This document shows positions 6,698 through 22,127 of a DNA stretch of 64,000 nt, piece after piece (positions within the stretch are counted from its first letter, which is position 1; each line of letters begins with the position of its first letter). A program made the translations under genes and the position numbers. The DNA lies in contig JASGJN010000023.1 in NCBI GenBank assembly GCA_049840735.1, forward strand, positions 145,472-209,471, read 5' to 3'. The notes below the pieces were generated by a model that worked only from the letters and a program-made list of their open reading frames with translations, ran no database searches and was not told the origin of the DNA. Source of the DNA: Anaeromyxobacter sp. Lineage in GTDB: Bacteria; Myxococcota; Myxococcia; Myxococcales; Anaeromyxobacteraceae.

Positions 6698-9600
6698 GTG
6701 GCTCGTCCAGCGAAGGGCAAGACCCCGAGGTCCAGGACCGCGGGCGCGAAGGCTTCCGGCTCCGATCGGCGGCGGGCGATCCGCTTCGCGGTCTGGCTGC
6801 GCGTGGACTACGCCGCCGAGGGCCGGCGGACCTTCAACTACTCGTCCAACCTGAGCCCGGTGGGCGTCCACCTGCGCGGCGCCACCCGCCTCGAGCTGGG
6901 CCAGGAGCTGCCCATCGAGCTGCGCCTCAAGACCGAGAAGGAGCCGGTGCAGCTGCAGGCCGTGGTGCGCCACGTGGTGGGCGGCGCCCAGGCCGGCGCC
7001 GGGCTGGAGTTCCTGCCCGGCCAGCCCGAGGCCATCGCCGCGGTCCGCCGCTTCCTGCAGGAGGAGGTGGTCGCGAAGCTGGAGGTGGGCCTCTCGCGCT
7101 CGCTGGCCAACGCGGCCAACGTCGAGCTGCTGGGCGCCTACTACGTCGAGACCGGGCGGGGCGACGAGGCGGTGGAGCTGTACCGGGGCGGCCTCGAGGC
7201 CACCCCCACCGCGCTGCCGCTGTACGAGGGGCTGTGCCGGCTGCTGGCGGTCCAGGCCCGGGGCGGCGGGGCGGGCGCCGCCGCGCTGGAGGAGCTGGAG
7301 GCGCGGCTGGCCCAGGGCGCCGAGGCGGGCGAGAGCCCGGTGCTGGAGGACCTGCAGCGCCAGGCGGCCGACCTGCGCCGCACGCAGGAGCGGCGCCGGC
7401 GCGAGGAGGCGCAGCGCGAGGCCGAGCAGCGCAAGCGGGAGGAGAAGGAGAAGGAGGACAAGCTCCGCGCCGCGCTGGCGAAGGAGGCGCAGGCCCAGCT
7501 GGAGAAGGAGCTGGCCGCCCGCCGGCGCGAGCAGGACAAGGAGCTGGAGGCCCGGGCCAGGGAGGCGGAGAAGGAGCTGGCCGAGGAGCGCCGCGGGCTC
7601 AAGGCCGAGCGGGCCGCGCTGGCCACCCTGGGCGAGGGGCTGAAGGAGCAGGAGGAGAAGCTCGGGCGCCAGGGCCAGAAGCTGGGGCAGCGCGCCGCCA
7701 AGCTGGACGAGGAGCGGCAGGCGCTGCTGGCCGACGTGGAGGCCCAGCGGGCGGTGCTGCGCGAGAAGGAGAAGGCGGTGGCCGGCCGCCTGGCCGGGAT
7801 CGCCGGCGAGGAGGAGGCCGCGGCCGAGCGGGTCAAGGCGCGGCAGCGCGAGCTGGCGGCGGAGGAGAAGGAGCTGGCGCGCCAGCAGGCGGCGCTGGGC
7901 GAGGCCGAGAGGCTGGTGGCGGCGCTGGAGAAGGCCCGCGGGGACGCGGCGCAGCTCCGCCGCGAGCTGAAGGACTCCGCGACCGAGCGCGAGCAGCGCG
8001 AGGCGGCGCTGCGGGCGCAGGAGAAGGCGGCGGCGCAGGCGGCGCGGGCGCTGGAGGAGGCGCAGTCGGCCCGGGCGGCGCTCGAGGCCAGGCTGGAGAA
8101 GCTGCGCGAGGACCTGCAGGCCATCCGGCGCGAGGCGGCGCGCGCGGCGGAGCGCCAGGCGGAGCTGGAGCGCGAGGGCGCGGCGCTGCGGGCCGAGCTG
8201 GAGCGGCGCGAGGCGCGCGACGCGGAGGCGGCCGCGGCCGCCGCCGCCGTGGAGGCGACGCGCGAGCAGCTGGTGACGCAGGGCGAGCGGCTGGCCGAGC
8301 TGGCGCGGGCGGTGGACGCGGAGCGGGCCACCTTCGCCGCGCAGCGCGAGGAGCTGGCGCGGCTGCGGTCGGCGCTGGACGGCGACGGCGAGCGGCTGGC
8401 GGGCGACCGCCGGGAGCTCGAGGCCGGACGCGAGGCGCTGGCGCGGCTCCGCGCCGAGGTGGAGGCCGGGGCGACCCGCCTGGCGGAGGCGGAGCAGCGC
8501 CACGCCGGGGAGCACGCCGCCCTGGAGGAGGCGCGGCTGGGGCTGGAGACGGCGCAGGCCGAGCTGCAGGGCCGGGCCGAGGTCCAGGCCGAGGCGCGCC
8601 AGGCGCTGTTCGACGGCGAGCTGCGGCTCGCCGACGCCCGGGCGGCGCTGGCGGCCGGCGAGCAGCGGCTGGGCGAGGAGCGCGCGGCCCTGGAGGCGGC
8701 GCGGGCCGAGCTGGACGGCGCGCGCGCGGCGCTGGAGGCGCAGGCGCGGGGCGCGGCGGAGGCGCGCGAGGCGCTGGTCGCGGAGCGGGCCGCGCTCGAC
8801 GCTGCGCGGGCCGGGCTGGACGGGACGCGCGAGGACCTGGAGGCCCGGCGCGCCGGGCTGGACGCGGCGCGCGGCGAGCTGGAGGCGCGCGGCCAGGCGC
8901 TGGCGGACGCCGAGGGGGCGCAGCGCGAGGCCGCCGGGCAGCTGGCGCGCGAGCGCGAGGAGCTGCAGGCGGCGCAGGCGCGGCTGGAGGCCGCGCGGGC
9001 CGAGCTGGAGGCGCGCGCGCAGGGCGTGGCCGGCACCGAGCGGTCGCTGGCCCAGGAGCAGGAGGCGCTGGCGTCGGCGCGGCAGGAGATCGAGGCGCTG
9101 CGCGGCGAGGTGGCCGACGGCGAGCGCACCCTGGCCGCCGAGCACGAGGCGCTGGCCTCGGCGCGGGCGGAGATCGAGGGGCTGCGGCGGGACGTGGCCG
9201 CGGCCGAGCGGAGCCTGGCCGACGAGCGCAAGGCGCTGGCCATCGCGCAGGTGGAGCTGGAGGCGCGCGCGCAGGGGCTGGGCGGCACCGAGCGGAGCCT
9301 GGCCGAGGAGCGCCACGCGCTGGCGCTGGGACGCGCCGAGCAGGAGTCGCGCGAGGGGACCATCCGGGCCACCGCGCAGGCGCTGGCGGAGGAGCGGGGC
9401 GCGCTGGAGGCGGCCCGGGCCGAGCTGGAGGGCCACCGGCAGGCGGCGGCCGCGGCGGCCTGGCAGCTGGCCGACGAGCGCGAGGTCCTGGCCGGGCAGC
9501 GGACCGCGCTCGAGGCCCGGGCCGAGGCGGTGGCCGAGGCGGAGCGGGCGCTGGCCGGCGAGCGCGAGGCGCTCGAGGCGGAGCGGTCCACCACCGCCGA

Positions 9601-11730: not shown

Positions 11731-14460
11731 ATGACATCTTCGCGTTCACTGTCGCTTCTCGCTGCGCTCGCCGCGTGCGTGCTGGCCGGCTGCTCCGGCT
11801 CTGACGGCGCGATCGGCCCGACCGGCCCGACCGGTCCCACCGGTCCGTCCGGCAACGACGCCTCCGCGTACGGCACGCTGGTCGGCACCGTCACCGACAC
11901 GTTCGGCAACGACGTGGCCGGCGCGACCGTCTCGTACCTGGTCGGGACCGACAAGGTCTCCGCCACCACCGACGCCAACGGCGCCTACTCCATCGACCTG
12001 GCGCCCGGCTCGCGCACCCTGACCTGGGCCGCCACCGGCTACGCCGCCTACGCGCAGGCCGTCGAGGCCGCGCCGACCCAGACCGTCACACTCGACGTGC
12101 GGCTCAACCCGGCCAACGGCGCGCGCGCGGTGGTGATCGCCGCCCGCACCGACACCACCTCGCCGGTGGTCCCGGGCACGACCGTGACCCTGAACGCGAA
12201 CCTGGTCGCCTTCGACCCGGACCTGCAGGACCAGGCCGTCACCTACCAGTGGACCGTGCTCTCCGGCCCGCCCGTCACCTTCAACGACGCCACCGCCAAG
12301 TCCCCGACGGCCACGCTGGCCGACCGGGCCTCCTTCAAGAACCGCGCGGTCGAGCTGGCGGTCCCGCACCTGAAGCTCTCGCCGGACGAGCCGGCCCTGA
12401 ACCAGGACCGCTACCAGGTGGTGCCCTTCTCCTACGAGCAGGCGCTCACCTTCGCCCCGCTGACCAAGTTCAAGGTCGTGGCCACCGTCGGCGGCAAGTC
12501 CTTCAGCAGCACGGTCAGCGTCAACGTCACCGGCATCCCGGTGGTCCCGACCACCGGCCTCGCCAACGTGCCCATCAACGCCCCGGTGGTGCTGCAGGGG
12601 CAGTTCCCGTTCAAGACCGACGAGGGCGAGTACGTGTGGCCGCTCCGCACCGACTACGCCTGGACCGTCACCGGCCCGGGCGGCGAGGTGACCCTGAACG
12701 ACCCGAACGGCCCGTTCCCCGACTTCACCCCGGCGACCGCGGGTGACTACGTCGTCTCCGAGGGCGGCAGCGTGGTCCTGACCGTCCACGCCGGCACCTA
12801 CGACGGCATCATGGCCGGCCCGGGCGCGGTGGTGAGCACCTGCGGCGCCTGCCACAGCGGCGTCAGCGTGCCCAACCCGTTCCCGGAGTGGCTCGAGACC
12901 GGGCACAAGGAGGTCATGTTCGCCGGCATCATGGAGCCGCTGCCGGACGGCCACTACGCCAAGACCTGCACGCCCTGCCACACGGTCGGCAACGGCCGGA
13001 CCGGCTCGGGCGGCTTCGCCGACGCGATGGCCTCGGAGAACCCGGACTTCGCCTCGCTGCAGGGTGACCTGAACGCCGAGGAGCACTTCTTCGCCCGCTA
13101 CCCGGCCTCCGGCCGCCTGGCCGGCGTCCAGTGCGAGAACTGCCACGGCCCGCAGATGGGCAACGAGGAGCACGCGAACGGCAACATCTGGACCGACGCC
13201 GAGACCTCGCGCATCACCTACTCCGCGAGCGTGTGCGCCACCTGCCACGCCCGCGCGCCGAAGCACGGCCGCTACACGCAGTGGATCACCAGCTCGCACG
13301 CCAACAAGGCCACGGTGACGTTCAACTCCAACGAGGAGACGGGCGCGCTGTCCAACTCCTGCGCCTGCTGCCACAGCGCCCAGGGCTTCGCCGGCTACCG
13401 GTCCATCCTGCCCACCGCGAACGGCGACCGCTCGCTGACCCCGCTGCCGGCCGGGCTGAACATCTACAACGCGCAGCCCATCACCTGCCAGACCTGCCAC
13501 AACTCGCACCACGAGGGTGACCTGTCGGTCGCCGAGTCCGAGAACCTGGCCACCGTCGGCCCGACCGAGGGCGCCACCTACATGCTGCCGTCCGGCTTCG
13601 CCGCCACCGGCGTGGGCAAGGGCGCGCTCTGCATCGCCTGCCACAACTCGCGCCAGGGCATCAACGGCGGCAAGCCCTACCTGCACGAGGACGGCGACGT
13701 GAAGTTCGGCACGCTGGCCAGCTACGGCGCGCCGCACGAGGCCGCGCAGGGCGACGTGCTGATGGGCCGCAACGCCTACTGGCTCGGCGCCGCGACCTAC
13801 AACAGCCCGGCCACCCGCTCGAAGCACTCGTACATCACCGACACCTGCGTGACCTGCCACATGGAGCTGACGACGCTCGACCTCTCCGTCGCCGAGGAGG
13901 GCCAGACCCGTCACGACTTCAAGGCCACGCCGGACGTCTGCAACAAGTGCCACGGCGAGTACTCCACCGAGTCCGTGCAGGCGGCCTTCGCGCCGCGGCT
14001 GGCGCAGGTCAAGGCGGCCGTGGGCCAGGCCATCCTCCGCCTGAAGTACAACGACGCCATCCCGGCCGGCACCACCGCCGTCCTGGTGGCCAACCGCCAG
14101 GGCCAGGTGGACGTGACCGACGCCACCGGCACGCACCGCTGGTTCCTCAGCAACCGCGCCAACAACGACGCGTTCCTGGTGGACCCGAACACCGGTGAGC
14201 TGGTCTCCGGCTGCGTCGGCACCGAGACGCTGGCCACCTGCACCGGCTTCCTGGCCGGCGCGCCCGGCGTGGCCGCCATCGGCAGCAGCGCCACCCAGGA
14301 CGCCACCGTGTCCGCCACGGGCGTGAACGGCGTGGTCGCCAAGGCGCTCTGGAACACCGTGCTGGTGCAGGACGACGCGTCGAAGGGCGTCCACAACCCG
14401 TCCTTCTCGTTCGAGGTGATGGACCAGACCCTGGTCCACATCGCCAGCTTCACGAAGTAG
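11731..14460 (+). CDS. Nonaheme c-type cytochrome lipoprotein with carboxypeptidase-regulatory/Ig-like N-terminal domains
   Basis: Lipobox LAGC, GPT repeats, nine CxxCH (CGACH, CTPCH, CENCH, CATCH, CACCH, CQTCH, CIACH, CVTCH, CNKCH), C-terminal GVHNP; GGAGG RBS. Confidence 0.9.
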   Translation: MTSSRSLSLLAALAACVLAGCSGSDGAIGPTGPTGPTGPSGNDASAYGTLVGTVTDTFGNDVAGATVSYLVGTDKVSATTDANGAYSIDLAPGSRTLTWAATGYAAYAQAVEAAPTQTVTLDVRLNPANGARAVVIAARTDTTSPVVPGTTVTLNANLVAFDPDLQDQAVTYQWTVLSGPPVTFNDATAKSPTATLADRASFKNRAVELAVPHLKLSPDEPALNQDRYQVVPFSYEQALTFAPLTKFKVVATVGGKSFSSTVSVNVTGIPVVPTTGLANVPINAPVVLQGQFPFKTDEGEYVWPLRTDYAWTVTGPGGEVTLNDPNGPFPDFTPATAGDYVVSEGGSVVLTVHAGTYDGIMAGPGAVVSTCGACHSGVSVPNPFPEWLETGHKEVMFAGIMEPLPDGHYAKTCTPCHTVGNGRTGSGGFADAMASENPDFASLQGDLNAEEHFFARYPASGRLAGVQCENCHGPQMGNEEHANGNIWTDAETSRITYSASVCATCHARAPKHGRYTQWITSSHANKATVTFNSNEETGALSNSCACCHSAQGFAGYRSILPTANGDRSLTPLPAGLNIYNAQPITCQTCHNSHHEGDLSVAESENLATVGPTEGATYMLPSGFAATGVGKGALCIACHNSRQGINGGKPYLHEDGDVKFGTLASYGAPHEAAQGDVLMGRNAYWLGAATYNSPATRSKHSYITDTCVTCHMELTTLDLSVAEEGQTRHDFKATPDVCNKCHGEYSTESVQAAFAPRLAQVKAAVGQAILRLKYNDAIPAGTTAVLVANRQGQVDVTDATGTHRWFLSNRANNDAFLVDPNTGELVSGCVGTETLATCTGFLAGAPGVAAIGSSATQDATVSATGVNGVVAKALWNTVLVQDDASKGVHNPSFSFEVMDQTLVHIASFTK

Positions 14461-14994: not shown

Positions 14995-15000
14995 GGGCGC

Positions 15001-16405
<1,405 letters not shown>

Positions 16406-16420
16406 GGCGTCTCAGCCTCC

Positions 16421-16460
16421 TGAAACATCCCGTTGCGGCATGGTGAAACATTTCGTCGCG
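16421..16460. promoter_or_regulatory. Tandem putative enhancer sites TGAAACAT-N2-CGT(T/C)GCG
   Basis: TGAAACATCCCGTTGCG (16421-16437) and TGAAACATTTCGTCGCG (16444-16460), 23-bp period, between the activator and the otr operon. Confidence 0.6.
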
Positions 16461-16591: not shown

Positions 16592-18025
16592 ATGGATGCC
16601 CCCAAGAAGAGTCCCTGGTTCCTGGCGCTCGCGGTGGGAGCCGTGGCAGTGGGCGCGGCCGCCGTCGCGCTGGCCACGCGCCCGGCGCCGCCGCCTCCGC
16701 TGCGCCACGCCGCCGGCTGGACCAGGCCCATCCGGCCGCACTTCGACCACACGCCGGTGATCCCCGCTTCCTTCGAGAGCCCGCAGGCGGTCACCCGCGC
16801 CTGCCTCGGCTGCCACCCGGATGCCGCCGCGGTGATGAAGACCGCGCACTGGCGCTGGCTGGGGGACGAGGTCGAGATCCCCGGCCGCCCCGGGAAGAAG
16901 CTGCGGGTCGGCAAGGCCAACCTGCTCAACAACTTCTGCATCGCGGCGCGCGGCAACGAGAGGTCGTGCACCAAGTGCCACATCGGCTACGGCTGGGCCG
17001 ACGACAGCTTCGACTTCTCGAAGGCCGAGAACATCGACTGCCTGGTCTGCCACGAGCAGACCGGGACCTACGCCAAGGGCCCCTACGGCCTGCCCACCCC
17101 GGAGACCGACCTGGTGGCCGCGGCGCGGTCGGTGGCCACGCCGACCCGCGAAGCCTGCCTGGGCTGCCACGCCTTCGGCGGCGGCGGGCAGGGCGTGAAG
17201 CACGGCGACCTCGACTCCTCCCTGGCCCACCCGCAGGAGCAGGAGGACGTGCACCTCGGCCGGCTCGGCTTCCTGTGCGTGGACTGCCACCAGGCGCCGG
17301 GCCACCAGCTGCGCGGCCGGGCCTTCTCGGTGAGCGTCGAGGACGCGCACGGCGTGGCCTGCACCGACTGCCACACCACGCCGGAGCACCGCGACGAGCG
17401 GCTCGAGGCGCACCTGTCGGCGGTGGCCTGCCAGACCTGCCACATCCCCAGCTTCGCCTCGAAGGTGCCCACCAAGGCCACCTGGGACTGGAGCAAGGCC
17501 GGCGACGGCACGCGCCCGGACGACGCGCACACCTACCTCAGGATCAAGGGCGAGTTCACCTACGAGCTGGACGCGCGGCCGGACTACGGCTGGTTCAACG
17601 GGACGGTGGGGCGCTACCTGCTGGGCGACCGGATCGACCCGCGGCAGGTGACGGTGCTCAACCCGCCGCAGGGCTCGATCGGCGACCGCACCGCCCGCAT
17701 CTGGCCCTTCAAGGTCCACCACGCGAAGCAGCCCTACGATGCGGGCCACGACTACCTGTTCCCGCCCGTCACCGGCGGCCCGGGCGGCTACTGGACCACC
17801 TTCGACTGGGACAGCGCCTTCCGCCTGGGCGAGAAGGCCAGCGGCCTCCCCTACAGCGGCCAGTACGGCTTCGCGCCCACCGACATGTACTGGCCCCTCT
17901 CGCACATGGTCGCGCCCAAGGAGCGCGCCCTCGGCTGCAACGACTGCCACGGCGCCCAGGGCCGCATGGACTGGAAGGCGCTCGGCTACGCAGGGGATCC
18001 CATCCAGAACGGAGGCCGCCGGTGA
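16592..18025 (+). CDS. otr: Octaheme c-type cytochrome, tetrathionate reductase (Otr) family
   Basis: Eight CxxCH; GK...NNFCI...SCTKCHIGYGW signature; KHGDLDSSL; N-terminal membrane anchor/signal. Confidence 0.88.
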   Translation: MDAPKKSPWFLALAVGAVAVGAAAVALATRPAPPPPLRHAAGWTRPIRPHFDHTPVIPASFESPQAVTRACLGCHPDAAAVMKTAHWRWLGDEVEIPGRPGKKLRVGKANLLNNFCIAARGNERSCTKCHIGYGWADDSFDFSKAENIDCLVCHEQTGTYAKGPYGLPTPETDLVAAARSVATPTREACLGCHAFGGGGQGVKHGDLDSSLAHPQEQEDVHLGRLGFLCVDCHQAPGHQLRGRAFSVSVEDAHGVACTDCHTTPEHRDERLEAHLSAVACQTCHIPSFASKVPTKATWDWSKAGDGTRPDDAHTYLRIKGEFTYELDARPDYGWFNGTVGRYLLGDRIDPRQVTVLNPPQGSIGDRTARIWPFKVHHAKQPYDAGHDYLFPPVTGGPGGYWTTFDWDSAFRLGEKASGLPYSGQYGFAPTDMYWPLSHMVAPKERALGCNDCHGAQGRMDWKALGYAGDPIQNGGRR

Positions 18026-20278
18026 GCTGGTCCTTCCCCGCGCGTCCCGCGCTCGCCCTCGCCCTGCTGGTCGCCGCCGCCCCCGCGGCGGCCCAGCAGG
18101 CGGTGAACCCCATCCACCCCGCCTTCCGGCCGCTGGACGCGGCCGGCAAGCCCACCGCCGACGGCGCGCAGGTCTCGCTGGAGAAGACCTGCGGCGCCTG
18201 CCACGACGCCGCCTGGATCGGCCAGCACACCGGGCACGCCGCCGCCGCCGGACGCCCCGCCGCCACCTGCGCCCAGTGCCACCTGGACGGCGGCCAGCTC
18301 CTGGTCACCCCGGCGTCGCTGGAAGCCGACGGCCGGCTCCGCCGCGAGGCCATCCGCATCGGCGCGCCCCGCGCCCAGGGCTGCGCCCGCTGCCACGGCC
18401 TGCTGACCGACGGCCGCGCCCCGGTGGCGCTCCCGCCGGACCTGGCCGCGCCGGCGGCGGGGCGGAGCTACCGGCTCACGCTGGGCGAGGGGGCCATCCT
18501 CTCGCCGGAGCGGATGTCGGCCTCGTTCCTGGCGCTGGAGGGCAAGGCGACCCTGGACGCGCCCTGGGACGTGCACGCCGCCAAGCTGGTGGACTGCACC
18601 GCCTGCCACTTCGCCGGCAACGACCCGGCCCGCACCGACCCCAAGCAGCCGCGGCTCCAGTACCTCACCGCCGACCCGCGGCGCCTCTCCCGCGCCGAGT
18701 TCCTGGTGCGGCCCGACCACCGGCTGGGCAAGGCCGGCTGCCGCTCCTGCCATGACGCGCAGCAGGCCCACGCCTTCCTGCCCTACCGCGCGCGGCACCT
18801 GGAGGTGCTGGCCTGCGAGGCCTGCCACCTGGCCTCGCCGCGCGCCCCGGTGCTGGAGCAGGTGGACGCGACCGTGGCCGGCCGCGACGGCGCGCCCGTG
18901 CTCCGCTTCCGCAACCTGGCGGTCCGACCCGGCGAGCCGCTGGGCGCCGCCACCGTCCGTCCCTTCCAGCCGCTCCTGGCGGAGCGGGCCGAGCCGGACG
19001 GCGCGCGCCGGCTGGCGCCGGTGAACCTGATCACCCGCTACCGCTGGGTGGCCGGCCCGGAGCGCGCCGAGGTGCCGTTCGAGCGGGTGGCGGCCGCGCT
19101 GGTCGAGGGAGGCGCCTGGCGCCGCGAGGCGCTGGCCGCGCTGGACGCCGACCACGACGGCGACCTCTCCGCGGGCGAGCTCCTGCTGGACACGGCGGAG
19201 GAGGTGGCCTTCGTGGCCGGCGCGCTGCGCGGCGCGGGGCTGCAGGATCCGGCCATCGCCGGCGACCTGCAAATCCTCCCTCTGGTCCACGGCGTCTCCA
19301 CCCGCGACCAGGCGCTGCGCGCCTGCGGCGCCTGCCACGGTCCCGAGTCGCGCCTCACCGCGCCGTTCACCGTGGCCTCGGTCCTGCCCGGCGGCGTCCC
19401 GCCGGCCCCGCCAACGGCGGCGCCGTGACCTTGGCCGGCACCGTGGCCCCTTCCGCCGGCGGCGGGCTCTCGCTGCTGCGCCAGGCCGGGGTCGCACCGC
19501 GTGGGCTGCACGTGCTCGGCCACTCTCGCGAGGGGATCACCAACACCCTGGGGTTCGTGATCTTCCTGCTCACGCTGGGCGGCGTCTCGGCGCATGGCCT
19601 GCTGCGGTGGGCGCTGCGCCGCCGCCAGGGCCACGCCCCGGTGGCGGAGCGCGACGAGTACGCGTTCGGCCGCTACGAGCGGCTCTGGCACTGGACCATG
19701 GCCCTCTCCGGCGCCGTGCTGATCGCCACCGGCCTGGTCATCCACGGCGGGGCGGGCGGCGGGCTGCCGGCGGCGGTGGCGCTGCACAACGCCTTCGCCG
19801 TGGTGCTGATGGCCAACGCCTTCCTGGCCCTCTTCCACCACCTGGCCACGGCCGCCATCCGCACCTTCATCCCGTCCCCCACCGGTCTCCTGGCCCGCAT
19901 CGCCCAGCACCTCGACTACCAGGCGCGGGGCATCTTCCGCGGCGCCGCCCACCCGGAGAACGCCCCCGGGCACAAGCTCAACCCGCTGCAGCAGCTGACG
20001 TACCTGGGGCTCCTCAACGTGCTCTTCCCGCTCCAAATCGCGACCGGCCTCTTGCTCTGGGCCGCCGGGCACTGGCCCCCGGTCGCGGCCGCGATCGGCG
20101 GGCTGGCGGTGATCGCGCCATCCACGACCTGGGCGCCTGGCTCTTCCTCACCTTCTTCGTGCTGCACGTCTACCTCGTCACCACCGGTCGGACGCCGACC
20201 GAGCACCTCACCTGGATGATCACCGGCTGGCGCCGCGCGCCGGATCGCGGGGAAGGCGCGCCGCAGGAGCGGAGCTGA
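18022..20278 (+). CDS. Heptaheme cytochrome c plus cytochrome b (hydrogenase/formate dehydrogenase b-type) membrane domain; probably one fused gene with frameshifts at about 19412-19425 and 20119
   Basis: Signal peptide, seven CxxCH, EF-hand-like DADHDGDLSAGE; then YERLWHW, LHNAF, KLNPLQQLTY, IHDLGAW...LHVYL His-bearing helices. Could alternatively be two genes (GTGA overlap at 19425). Confidence 0.75.
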
Positions 20279-20280
20279 TC

Positions 20281-20800
20281 ATGGCCAAGGAACCGCGTCC
20301 CTACCTGAACCCGTACCTCGCCGGCGCGCTGCTCGGCGTGGTGCTCTTCCTCAGCTTCTACGTGACCGGCGGCGGGCTCGGCGCCTCCTCCGCGCTCAGC
20401 CACGTCGAGGCGGCGGTGGTCGACCTGTTCGCCCCGGCGCACGTCGAATCGCACCGCCTACCTGGCCGAGATGGCCGGCGGCAGCCGCAACCCGTGGAAC
20501 CACCAAGGCGTCTGGATGCTGCTGGGCACCGTGCTGGGCGGAATCGCCTCCGGGGTCCTCAACCGGCGCTTCAGGCTGGAGTTCCGCAAGGGCCCGAACG
20601 TCAGCACCGGCACGCGGGTGGTCTTCGCGCTGCTGGGCGGCGCCATCATGGGCTACGGCGCGCGGCTGGCCCGCGGGTGCACTTCCGGCCAGGCGCTCTC
20701 CGGCGGCGCGGTGCTCTCGGTCGGCAGCTGGGCCTTCGCGCTGGCGGTCTTCGCCGGCGCCTACGCGCTGGCGTACACCGTCCGCCGGCTCTGGAACTAG
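20281..20800 (+). CDS. YeeE/YedE family sulfur-compound transporter subunit (frameshift at about 20447)
   Basis: PYLNPYLAG N-terminus, GARLARGCTSGQALSG conserved Cys motif; GAATC to GATC joins the halves. Confidence 0.82.
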
Positions 20801-20814
20801 GGAGGGCGATCACC

Positions 20815-22127
20815 ATGGCACCGTTCGCGCTCACCCCCGGCACCCTCGGCTACGTCCTCGCCTTCCTGGCCATCGGCCTCGGCTTCGGGTTCGTGCTGGA
20901 GCTGGCCGGCTTCGGCGACACCCGCAAGCTGGCGGCGCAGTTCTACTTCAAGGACCTCACCATCCTGAAGGTCATGTTCACCGGCATCGTGGTGGCCGCG
21001 GTGCTGCTCGCCGCCGCCACCTCGCTGGGCCTGCTCGACCTGGGCCGCGTCTGGATCAACCCCACCTACCTGTGGCCCGGGATCGTGGGCGGCCTGATCA
21101 TGGGCGTGGGGTTCATCCTTGGCGGCTCTGCCCCGGCACCTCGGTCGTGGCGGCCGCGACGCTCAGGCGTCGACGGCATGCTCTTCCTGCTCGGCGTGCT
21201 GGTGGGCGTGGGCGCGTCGGCGAGACGGTGGGCCGCTTCGAGCCCTTCTACCTCTCCTCGTACATGGGCCGCTTCACGCTGCCAGAGCTGTTGGGGCTGC
21301 CGCTGGGGGTCACGCTGGTGCTGGTGGTCGCCATGGCCCTGTTCATGTTCTGGGGCGGTGAGCTGCTCGAGCAGCGCCACGGCCAGGGCAGGCCCTGGGC
21401 GGAGATCCGCCTGGCGCCGGCCCGGTCCGGCAAGGCGCTGGCGGCGGGCGCGCTCCTCCTGGCCGCCGCGGCCGTGGCCGCAAACGGCCAGCCCACCCCG
21501 CAGCAGGTGTTCGCCCGGCTCGGCCCGGCCGCGCAGGCGGAGCTCGAGTCCCGCGCCGTGGTGGTGGATCCGGCGGAGGTGGTGGCGCTGCGGAAGGACC
21601 TGACGGTGCAGGTGGTGGTGCTCGACCTGCGGGACGAGCACCAGTTCCTCCTGTTCCACGTCGGCGGCGCGCGGCGGGTGGGGCCGGAGCAGCTCCTGGC
21701 CCCGGGCACCGTGAAGCAGCTCCTCGACCAGCCCGCCTCGACGGTGACCTTCCTGGTCGGCACCGGCGAGGCCCAGGCGCTGGAGGCGTGGAAGGGGCTC
21801 AAGGGGCTGGGCGTGCCCAACCTTTACGTGATCGAGGGCGGCATGAACGGCTGGCTGGAGCGGTACGCCGTGCCCACCTGCGTGGCGGCGCCGTCCACCG
21901 CGGCCGCCGCCGGCGCCTCCGACGTGCCCCGCTGGCAGTTCGCCCACGCGACCGGCGACCAGCTCCCCGCCTCCTGGCCCGAGCTGTCGCGCTCCGGCGC
22001 GTTCCGCACCCCCTGCGGCGAGCCCATCGCCCAGGGCGGCCACGAGGGGATCACCTGGCCCGAGCACGCCTTCACGAAGAAGGTGAAGCTGCAGACGAGG
22101 ACGGTGGTGAAGGGCGGGTGCGGGTGA
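20815..22127 (+). CDS. YeeE/YedE family subunit fused to rhodanese-like domain with C-terminal GGCG (several frameshifts at about 21125-21220)
   Basis: GFGFVLELAGFG, GG(F)CPGT Cys motif, VVLDLRDEHQFLLFHVGGA and LYVIEGGMNGW rhodanese motifs, ends KKVKLQTRTVVKGGCG*. Confidence 0.8.

Follow-up and report, generated by a model that had tools for sequence, protein, structure and literature searches.

In the thiosulfate uptake system composed of YeeE (TsuA) and YeeD (TsuB), the channel protein of Spirochaeta thermophila has its N-terminus outside and is made of two inverted halves joined by helix 7, where C293 lies outside and C22 and C91 lie towards the cytoplasm (PMC7449682), and YeeD is described as a cytoplasmic TusA-like protein (PMC11073785). 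A shorter version is represented by PmpA and PmpB, for which a heterodimer has been proposed, and short YeeE pairs of this kind are reported to import zero-valent sulfur (PMC11582611).

The octaheme protein Otr carries the annotation of tetrathionate reductase in many genomes. In vitro, it works best with nitrite and hydroxylamine, and deletion of otr in Shewanella ANA-3 had no effect on tetrathionate use and gave a hint of sulfite reduction; this 2026 study states that a physiological function of Otr was never established and assigns it no role in tetrathionate respiration (PMC12949373). In sediment microcosms, otr transcripts were up 36-fold by day 8 after tetrathionate (PMC8528874), a rise that supports a link with sulfur. 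YeeE or rhodanese genes in the vicinity of Psr or Otr are noted in genome papers, and the text available from these contains no analysis of a protein tail (PMC12142623, PMC13490349, PMC5317091, PMC12545173).

In the stretch of Anaeromyxobacter sp. DNA considered here (64,000 nucleotides of contig JASGJN010000023.1, hereafter the window), an otr operon ends with half a YeeE channel extended by a rhodanese-like domain and a C-terminal Gly-Gly-Cys-Gly tail. This tail is real, widespread and apparently undescribed, no account of it having been found in the main text of the open-access papers searched. The reading favoured here, with a probability of about 0.58, is that sulfane sulfur travels on the tip of the tail, with the outer mouth of the YeeE pair at one end of the route and, at the other, a quinone-linked enzyme that breaks or makes an S-S bond.

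The otr operon and its split YeeE channel

The genes are arranged on the forward strand in the order otr, multiheme cytochrome c/b, yeeE-A and yeeE-B/arm, with overlapping or near-touching junctions. Otr (16592..18025, +; 477 aa) has an intact frame and an N-terminal export or anchor segment; as an octaheme protein scoring 529 bits against TIGR04315 (cut-off 375) and aligning to PDB 1SP3 with an E-value of 1.4e-134, it belongs to the family. Its stop is overlapped by the start of a gene for a multiheme cytochrome c fused to a PhsC-like cytochrome b (18022..20278, +; profile matches), which has seven CxxCH motifs in relatives, carries two single-base indels here (~19414 and 20121) and is the likely quinol link. 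YeeE half A (20281..20800, +) corresponds to the C-terminal half of a full YeeE (PF04143 positions 223-309), with one indel at ~20449 and its Cys in ARGCTSG (codon 20678-20680), a residue kept in 79 of 82 aligned rows; a paralogue of it matches positions 232-326 of the TsuA profile. YeeE half B (20815..21488, +; PF04143) comprises the N-terminal half and two further helices, with three indels and its Cys in GGFCPGT (codon 21129-21131); a relative matches positions 3-97 of the TsuA profile and a relative's model aligns to the YeeE structures 8J4C/6LEP with a Z-score of 9.

By both profile and fold, these proteins belong to YeeE/YedE (PF04143). A full-length YeeE/TsuA is one chain with nine helices and C22, C91 and C293; here, two genes contribute one Cys each, there is no C22 equivalent, and TsuA models score far under their cut-off. 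Adjacent half genes with one Cys each and matches to the N- and C-terminal halves are the features of a PmpA/PmpB-type split. As such, the fusion to a YeeE transporter reported in the initial annotation needs amending: a YeeE part is indeed fused to the arm, but it is the N-terminal half only, the other half being the gene upstream. Halves A and B are predicted to form one channel with two Cys, equivalent to C293 and C91 of S. thermophila.

Upstream and divergent from otr lies a gene for a sigma-54-dependent activator (14998..16405, -; PF00158), frameshifted here and kept upstream of otr in close relatives, which would be linked to the operon. A strict sigma-54 promoter pattern was found upstream of otr in none of 12 relatives, nor in the window. 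Two copies of TGAAACAT stand between the activator gene and otr (16420-16455) and are possible binding sites of the activator. Near the activator gene, positions 11731-14460 encode a large predicted lipoprotein multiheme cytochrome with a collagen-like repeat and Ig/PKD-like domains. ArsR regulators found upstream in 20 loci have at most one or two Cys and, by eye, no clear sensor-type pair. Elsewhere in this genome there are two TusA genes; the operon itself showed no TusA-like gene cluster.

The copy in the window is interrupted. Comparison with three relatives located single-base indels near 21127, 21168 and 21201-21210 in the yeeE-B/arm gene (ATG 20815), which does not read through here and is one open frame of ~440 aa in relatives; in all, the operon has six such indels in ~4.1 kb, one inside the GGFCPG motif. 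Between 15000 and 30100, unrelated genes (the activator, UDP-glucose pyrophosphorylase and a cobalamin adenosyltransferase-like gene) also appear to change frame and, because they are operon-unrelated neighbours, the six indels are read as probable assembly errors. That this copy is a decaying pseudo-operon from which nothing is made is unlikely, and would in any case concern this copy only and be compatible with the main explanation. The density of indels and the one in the GGFCPG motif speak for decay, as does a survey of other contigs (50 of 99 queries covered) in which only one of nine distinct gene matches changes frame; against it, no in-frame stop substitutions were seen, neither otr nor the arm domain is interrupted and both retain 57-79% identity with close relatives, and frame changes in the sigma-54 activator and other unrelated neighbours are what is expected of a poorly polished stretch.

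Wherever the flanks sufficed, homologous loci contained yeeE-A (78/78), the cytochrome c/b (74/74) and otr (59/59). Among 301 genomes of Myxococcota, half B lies at most 6 kb from 39 of the 44 Otr matches of at least 500 bits, a count in which kin are not independent, and near none of the seven Otr matches at 392-440 bits. In more distant relatives (80 metagenome loci, flanks often short), the neighbours included a PhsA/PsrA-like molybdenum enzyme in 17, a 4Fe-4S subunit in 19, NrfD in 29 and otr in 12; the partner of the YeeE/arm module is thus not always Otr, Psr/Phs-type enzymes taking this place in distant relatives. At L204 (G537:C15), L002 and L011, Otr-type and Psr-type operons adjoin within the same genome, and each operon has a YeeE pair and an arm to itself. 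Two further loci (L194:3696-5777 and L195:724-2598) present the variant order otr, yeeE-A, yeeE-B/arm ending in AGLCS, and then a gene for a 9-heme cytochrome c/b.

The Cys-less rhodanese, the terminal tail and its TGA-coded forms

Following half B, residues 167-263 of the open reading frame 21072-22127 match Pfam Rhodanese with an E-value of 4e-8 (domain at 21570..21860, +), and the predicted model of a relative matches rhodanese folds with a Z-score of 11; a Foldseek search gave no match at an E-value of 0.001. As first annotated, this rhodanese-like domain is Cys-less: it has the fold of an active sulfurtransferase, but in place of the catalytic Cys at the start of the active-site loop, which reads TFLVGTGE, there is a Gly (21759-21761). 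Across 52 aligned relatives, the catalytic position is S in 33, G in 18 and A in one, and none has a Cys in the loop; in a wider alignment, three of 95 do. The two further Cys also given by the initial annotation are in the linker (21879..22016, +), namely in VPTC (21879) and RTPC (22014); on alignment, they are specific to a clade, being present in all 120 close homologues among the matches listed, whereas the first of them occurs in only 23 of 82 rows of a cross-phylum alignment and is missing from most Chloroflexota. The pair likely makes a structural disulfide. A role of these Cys in a relay was rejected because they are restricted to one clade.

The side of the membrane on which the tail lies was assessed from the helix count, the charges and naturally split forms. 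In the model of a homologue (P0002, pLDDT 91), six membrane helices precede the rhodanese; with a start outside, the rhodanese and tail are therefore placed outside. Lys and Arg average 3.9 and 4.8 in the loops after helices 1 and 5, and about one or fewer in the other loops. Half B ends early in 32 of the 80 metagenome loci; the next gene is complete in 23 of these and cut in nine, and 22 of the 23 code for a protein with a hydrophobic run followed by a rhodanese and, at its C-terminus, GC(G), the 23rd encoding an ExtH lipoprotein ending in SGC. In such separate arm genes, the charge before the hydrophobic run exceeds the charge after it in 24 of 27. The tail is consequently predicted to face the periplasm, on the same side as Otr. 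The tail Cys was also considered as a substitute for the missing C22 of YeeE and ruled out, C22 being on the cytoplasmic side and the tail predicted outside.

The C-terminus of the protein in the window is KKVKLQTRTVVKGGCG, i.e., a basic tail (22077..22127, +; KKVKLQ...KGGCG) delimited by conservation and models, whose last residues KGGCG, with the invariant Cys at codon 22119-22121, directly precede the stop TGA (22125-22127), which bears out the GGCG ending noted initially. Among 3569 coding-like ORF ends of this genome, picked with a crude codon filter, a GGC(G) end occurs once, in this very protein, and a GC(x) end six times. GGCG is the C-terminal end in 120/120 close homologues among the matches listed, and in 77 of 80 genome loci spanning Myxococcota, Chloroflexota, Spirochaetota, Gammaproteobacteria and others, the remaining three being two contig-end cuts and one GSGCG. 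At the level of 50%-identity representatives among the matches listed, 91 of 150 are full-length (370-480 aa), and 85 of these 91 have a Gly-Cys or Leu-Cys at most four residues from the end, with the variants GGCG, EGC, RGC, GGC and LCS among representatives; the other six look frameshifted or fused. The linkers of these representatives change wholly, sharing only richness in Pro, Ala and Lys. The invariance of the tail Cys in alignment A2 is not independent, because its rows were hand-picked.

Both in the model of a full-length relative and in that of the arm domain, the tail is ordered up to about KLQ and the confidence falls over the last ~8 residues. Because the arm-domain-only model retains the same ordered segment, this order is independent of the channel. 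The full-length model, in which half A is absent and the last residues have a pLDDT of ~58, aligns to YeeE over model residues 13-438 and could thereby place the tail near the channel, a reading discounted on account of the missing half and this low confidence. The free part of the arm is accordingly short in these models, ~8 residues, which counts against a swinging carrier.

Among 30 loci fetched after the search of 301 Myxococcota genomes, one (L164) has an in-frame TGA both at the half-B Cys (44-46) and at the tail Cys (980-982), and protein P0191 shows truncation at both of these points; another locus (L041) has an in-frame TGA at the half-B Cys (9292-9294). All three distinct TGA sites are followed by a hairpin fitting the spacing of the published bacterial SECIS consensus (PMC13188914), with a stem of 6-7 pairs and a G-led loop ~20 nt downstream, as compared with 26/158 and 10/120 of Cys-coded sites; on their own, such SECIS-like hairpins are not significantly stable (z 0.4 to -1.6). 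A selB gene is present in 5/5 genomes tested, Cys-coding ones included. From these codons, it is likely that L164 and L041 encode selenocysteine, with GG[FY]UPG and GGUG as candidate forms. An error would hardly place TGA codons at precisely both invariant Cys, and their occurrence there points to reactive residues. In the passage available from a selenoprotein catalogue, YeeE is given with GUxSG only; if right, a terminal GGUG form would be added. The conservation of the terminal Cys on which the initial annotation depended is, in sum, near-invariant across phyla, with a TGA-coded version in one selB-bearing genome; neither this result nor the predicted side of the membrane refutes the initial reading.

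Gly-Cys tips on other scaffolds

Variation is also found in what carries the tip. Two half-B proteins, P0219 and L129, have the Cys tail and no rhodanese; P0266 has, instead of the arm, tandem rhodaneses with an active-site Cys. In L197:1300-4484 and L198, yeeE-A is accompanied by a short yeeE-B without rhodanese, a secreted 101-aa protein ending in KKAGGC, a divergent octaheme scoring 167 bits against TIGR04315, i.e., below the cut-off, and an ArsR gene encoding several Cys. Homologues of the 101-aa protein have a GC or GCS end in 120/120 of the matches listed, and the protein resembles ExtJ weakly (E 1e-4). ExtJ proteins themselves (NF040942; L206-L221) are small and secreted, and an E/Q-GC end is present in 16/16 of those over the cut-off with loci fetched, which suggests that they may be soluble carriers of the ext sulfur-respiration cluster; the portions available of the literature searched (PMC5877670, PMC13510729) make no mention of the Gly-Cys tips of ext proteins. 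In L151:4068-12289, yeeE-A, yeeE-B, ExtH (ending in SGC), the ExtI porin, an ExtJ-like protein (8084-8452), a PsrA-like enzyme, a 4Fe-4S protein and a cytochrome b are encoded in one operon, and the YeeE pair is therefore tied to the ext system.

Among 401 gammaproteobacterial genomes, 20 of the 37 otr matches were examined; YeeE halves occur in none of these 20 loci, and in 15 of them the stretch fetched contains no clear Gly-Cys-tipped arm gene. Directly upstream of otr, four of the 20 have a gene for a DUF302 protein with a Gly-rich end, GGC or SGC (L237:4138-4740, L238:5319-5897, L243:8727-9323 and L245:8615-9211), a thioredoxin-like gene following the cytochrome b. In L255:5484-9784, a triple rhodanese, an otr fused to a cytochrome b-like tail, soxY (PF13501 over the cut-off) and a soxZ-like gene form a tight run; a divergent soxY (soxY-S3) with soxZ is likewise described adjoining otr in lucinid symbionts (PMC11237559).

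What these sequences appear to conserve is an exported terminal Cys rather than its scaffold. A tentative extension, possible though with the odds against it, is that Otr and many Psr/Phs enzymes, and perhaps also the ext system of Geobacter, have protein-bound sulfur as their substrate and are served by a convergent, so far unrecognised class of exported Gly-Cys-tipped carriers; members of this class would be the YeeE-tethered dead rhodanese, the free rhodanese-arm, ExtJ, the ExtH tail, DUF302-GGC and SoxY, sometimes with a Sec tip. If true, Sox-like carrier chemistry would operate in the reductive direction in many anaerobic phyla, and the poor use of free tetrathionate by purified Otr would be explained.

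Proposed function of the arm and comparison with known systems

In the sulfur-carrier reading, the terminal Cys would bind sulfane sulfur as a persulfide or thiosulfonate, forming a third, mobile Cys outside the two-Cys channel, and the arm, mounted on the dead rhodanese as spacer and docking base, would move back and forth from channel mouth to octaheme enzyme in the way that SoxY serves the Sox enzymes. Polysulfide, tetrathionate or channel-delivered sulfur may load the arm; electrons from menaquinol would reach Otr by way of cytochrome b and then the multiheme c domain, and this enzyme would cleave the arm-bound S-S bond with release of sulfide or thiosulfate. We infer the adduct, the contact and this reductive direction, which is favoured over the reverse, i.e., sulfide oxidised onto the arm and then imported. 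Against a carrier, Otr does not need the module, given 0/20 gammaproteobacterial loci and 0/7 lower-scoring Otr genes of Myxococcota; its best in vitro substrates are nitrite and hydroxylamine, and its deletion left tetrathionate use unaffected (PMC12949373); and the genome (94% complete) contains no DsrA, PhsA or SoxY over the cut-off.

Large thioredoxin reductases have a terminal redox arm, and the tail could by analogy be an electron shuttle, engaging the periplasm-side Cys of half A in a short-lived mixed disulfide and being re-reduced by Otr or Psr, so that the channel Cys are kept reduced or electrons are passed across the membrane. TGA-coding of both a channel Cys and the tail Cys in one gene is expected of thiol-exchange partners, half A always accompanies the module (78/78), and P0219 and L129 retain the Cys tail without the rhodanese. 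Nevertheless, the arm has a single Cys and no vicinal pair, Gly-Cys-tipped proteins flank otr with no YeeE nearby, and a true SoxY, a proven sulfur carrier, occupies the same slot in L255; a shuttle is thus rather unlikely.

The fixed order with otr in 59/59 loci and the translational coupling with it render quite improbable another proposal, namely that the arm serves the channel only, capturing sulfane sulfur or thiosulfate for import as an outside counterpart of YeeD, and that Otr is merely co-regulated and acts on free nitrite, hydroxylamine or sulfite. The in vitro and genetic record of Otr (PMC12949373), the many otr loci without any arm and the reported import of zero-valent sulfur by short YeeE pairs (PMC11582611) would fit this proposal. 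Against it, arms also occur next to otr on four scaffolds that are unrelated to each other, whether or not YeeE is present. A module for handling selenium, tellurium or some thiophilic metal(loid), in which an oxyanion would be bound for reduction at the Cys or Sec tip, is very improbable. YedE-type proteins do transport selenium, and ExtH, ExtI and ExtJ, with a tip of this kind or a place in the neighbourhood, were tied to selenite and tellurite reduction (PMC5877670). Yet the partners of the module are Otr and PhsA/PsrA-like enzymes, and elemental sulfur respiration is now reported to require the multiheme selenoenzyme of the ext cluster (PMC13510729).

Returning to the sulfur carrier, a tethered carrier Cys in the otr operon would open the natural substrate of Otr to direct testing with one residue and one substrate, a persulfidated peptide of the tail. 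Should this reading be right, carrier chemistry of the SoxY type would not be confined to sulfur oxidisers and would extend to respiratory sulfur enzymes of Myxococcota, Chloroflexota, Spirochaetota and others, and ExtJ and one DUF302 group, both uncharacterised, would gain a function.

Compared with known systems, the Otr of the window is of the same family as that of Shewanella oneidensis (PDB 1SP3), over the TIGR04315 cut-off, whereas gammaproteobacterial otr loci pair the enzyme with a plain cytochrome b and have no YeeE module (0/20). Wolinella Sud is a periplasmic sulfur transferase. Both Sud and the Geobacter extHIJKL cluster resemble the window in having small or rhodanese-type exported proteins next to sulfur reductases, but their rhodaneses have the active-site Cys, which that of the window has lost, its only conserved outside Cys being at the tip.

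As for the channel, the YeeE-YeeD system (PDB 6LEO, 8J4C) shares with the window the YeeE fold, the C91 and C293 equivalents and a fusable Cys-bearing partner domain; it differs in that the channel of the window is encoded by two genes in swapped order, has no C22 equivalent and has its partner Cys predicted outside. Like PmpA/PmpB, the window has two half-channels with one Cys each but, compared with those proteins of ~130 aa and four helices, its half B adds two helices, the rhodanese-like domain and the arm. On sequence grounds, the system belongs with the split YeeE proteins of PmpAB type, to which it adds an extension, and is not a TsuA-YeeD system.

Finally, the arm shares with SoxY (SoxYZ, PF13501), which adjoins otr in L255 and in lucinid symbionts, a terminal Gly-Gly-Cys-Gly on a flexible arm, whose Cys is the carrier in SoxY, and, by prediction only, a periplasmic location. 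Pfam gives only Rhodanese for the protein, no NCBIfam SoxY model matches up to an E-value of 1, and BLASTP against the SoxY of L255 gives an E-value of 0.81, in agreement with the initial view of a convergent, SoxY-like arm. The accompanying statement that sox genes are absent holds for SoxY, the one sox gene that the genome search covered, the neighbours being otr, the cytochrome c/b and yeeE-A rather than a SoxZ partner or sox cluster. Unlike SoxY, the arm protein has a rhodanese fold without sequence similarity to SoxY, is tethered to a channel half and pairs with quinone-linked reductase-type enzymes; that the protein, although not a member of the SoxY family, would work like one is largely supported.
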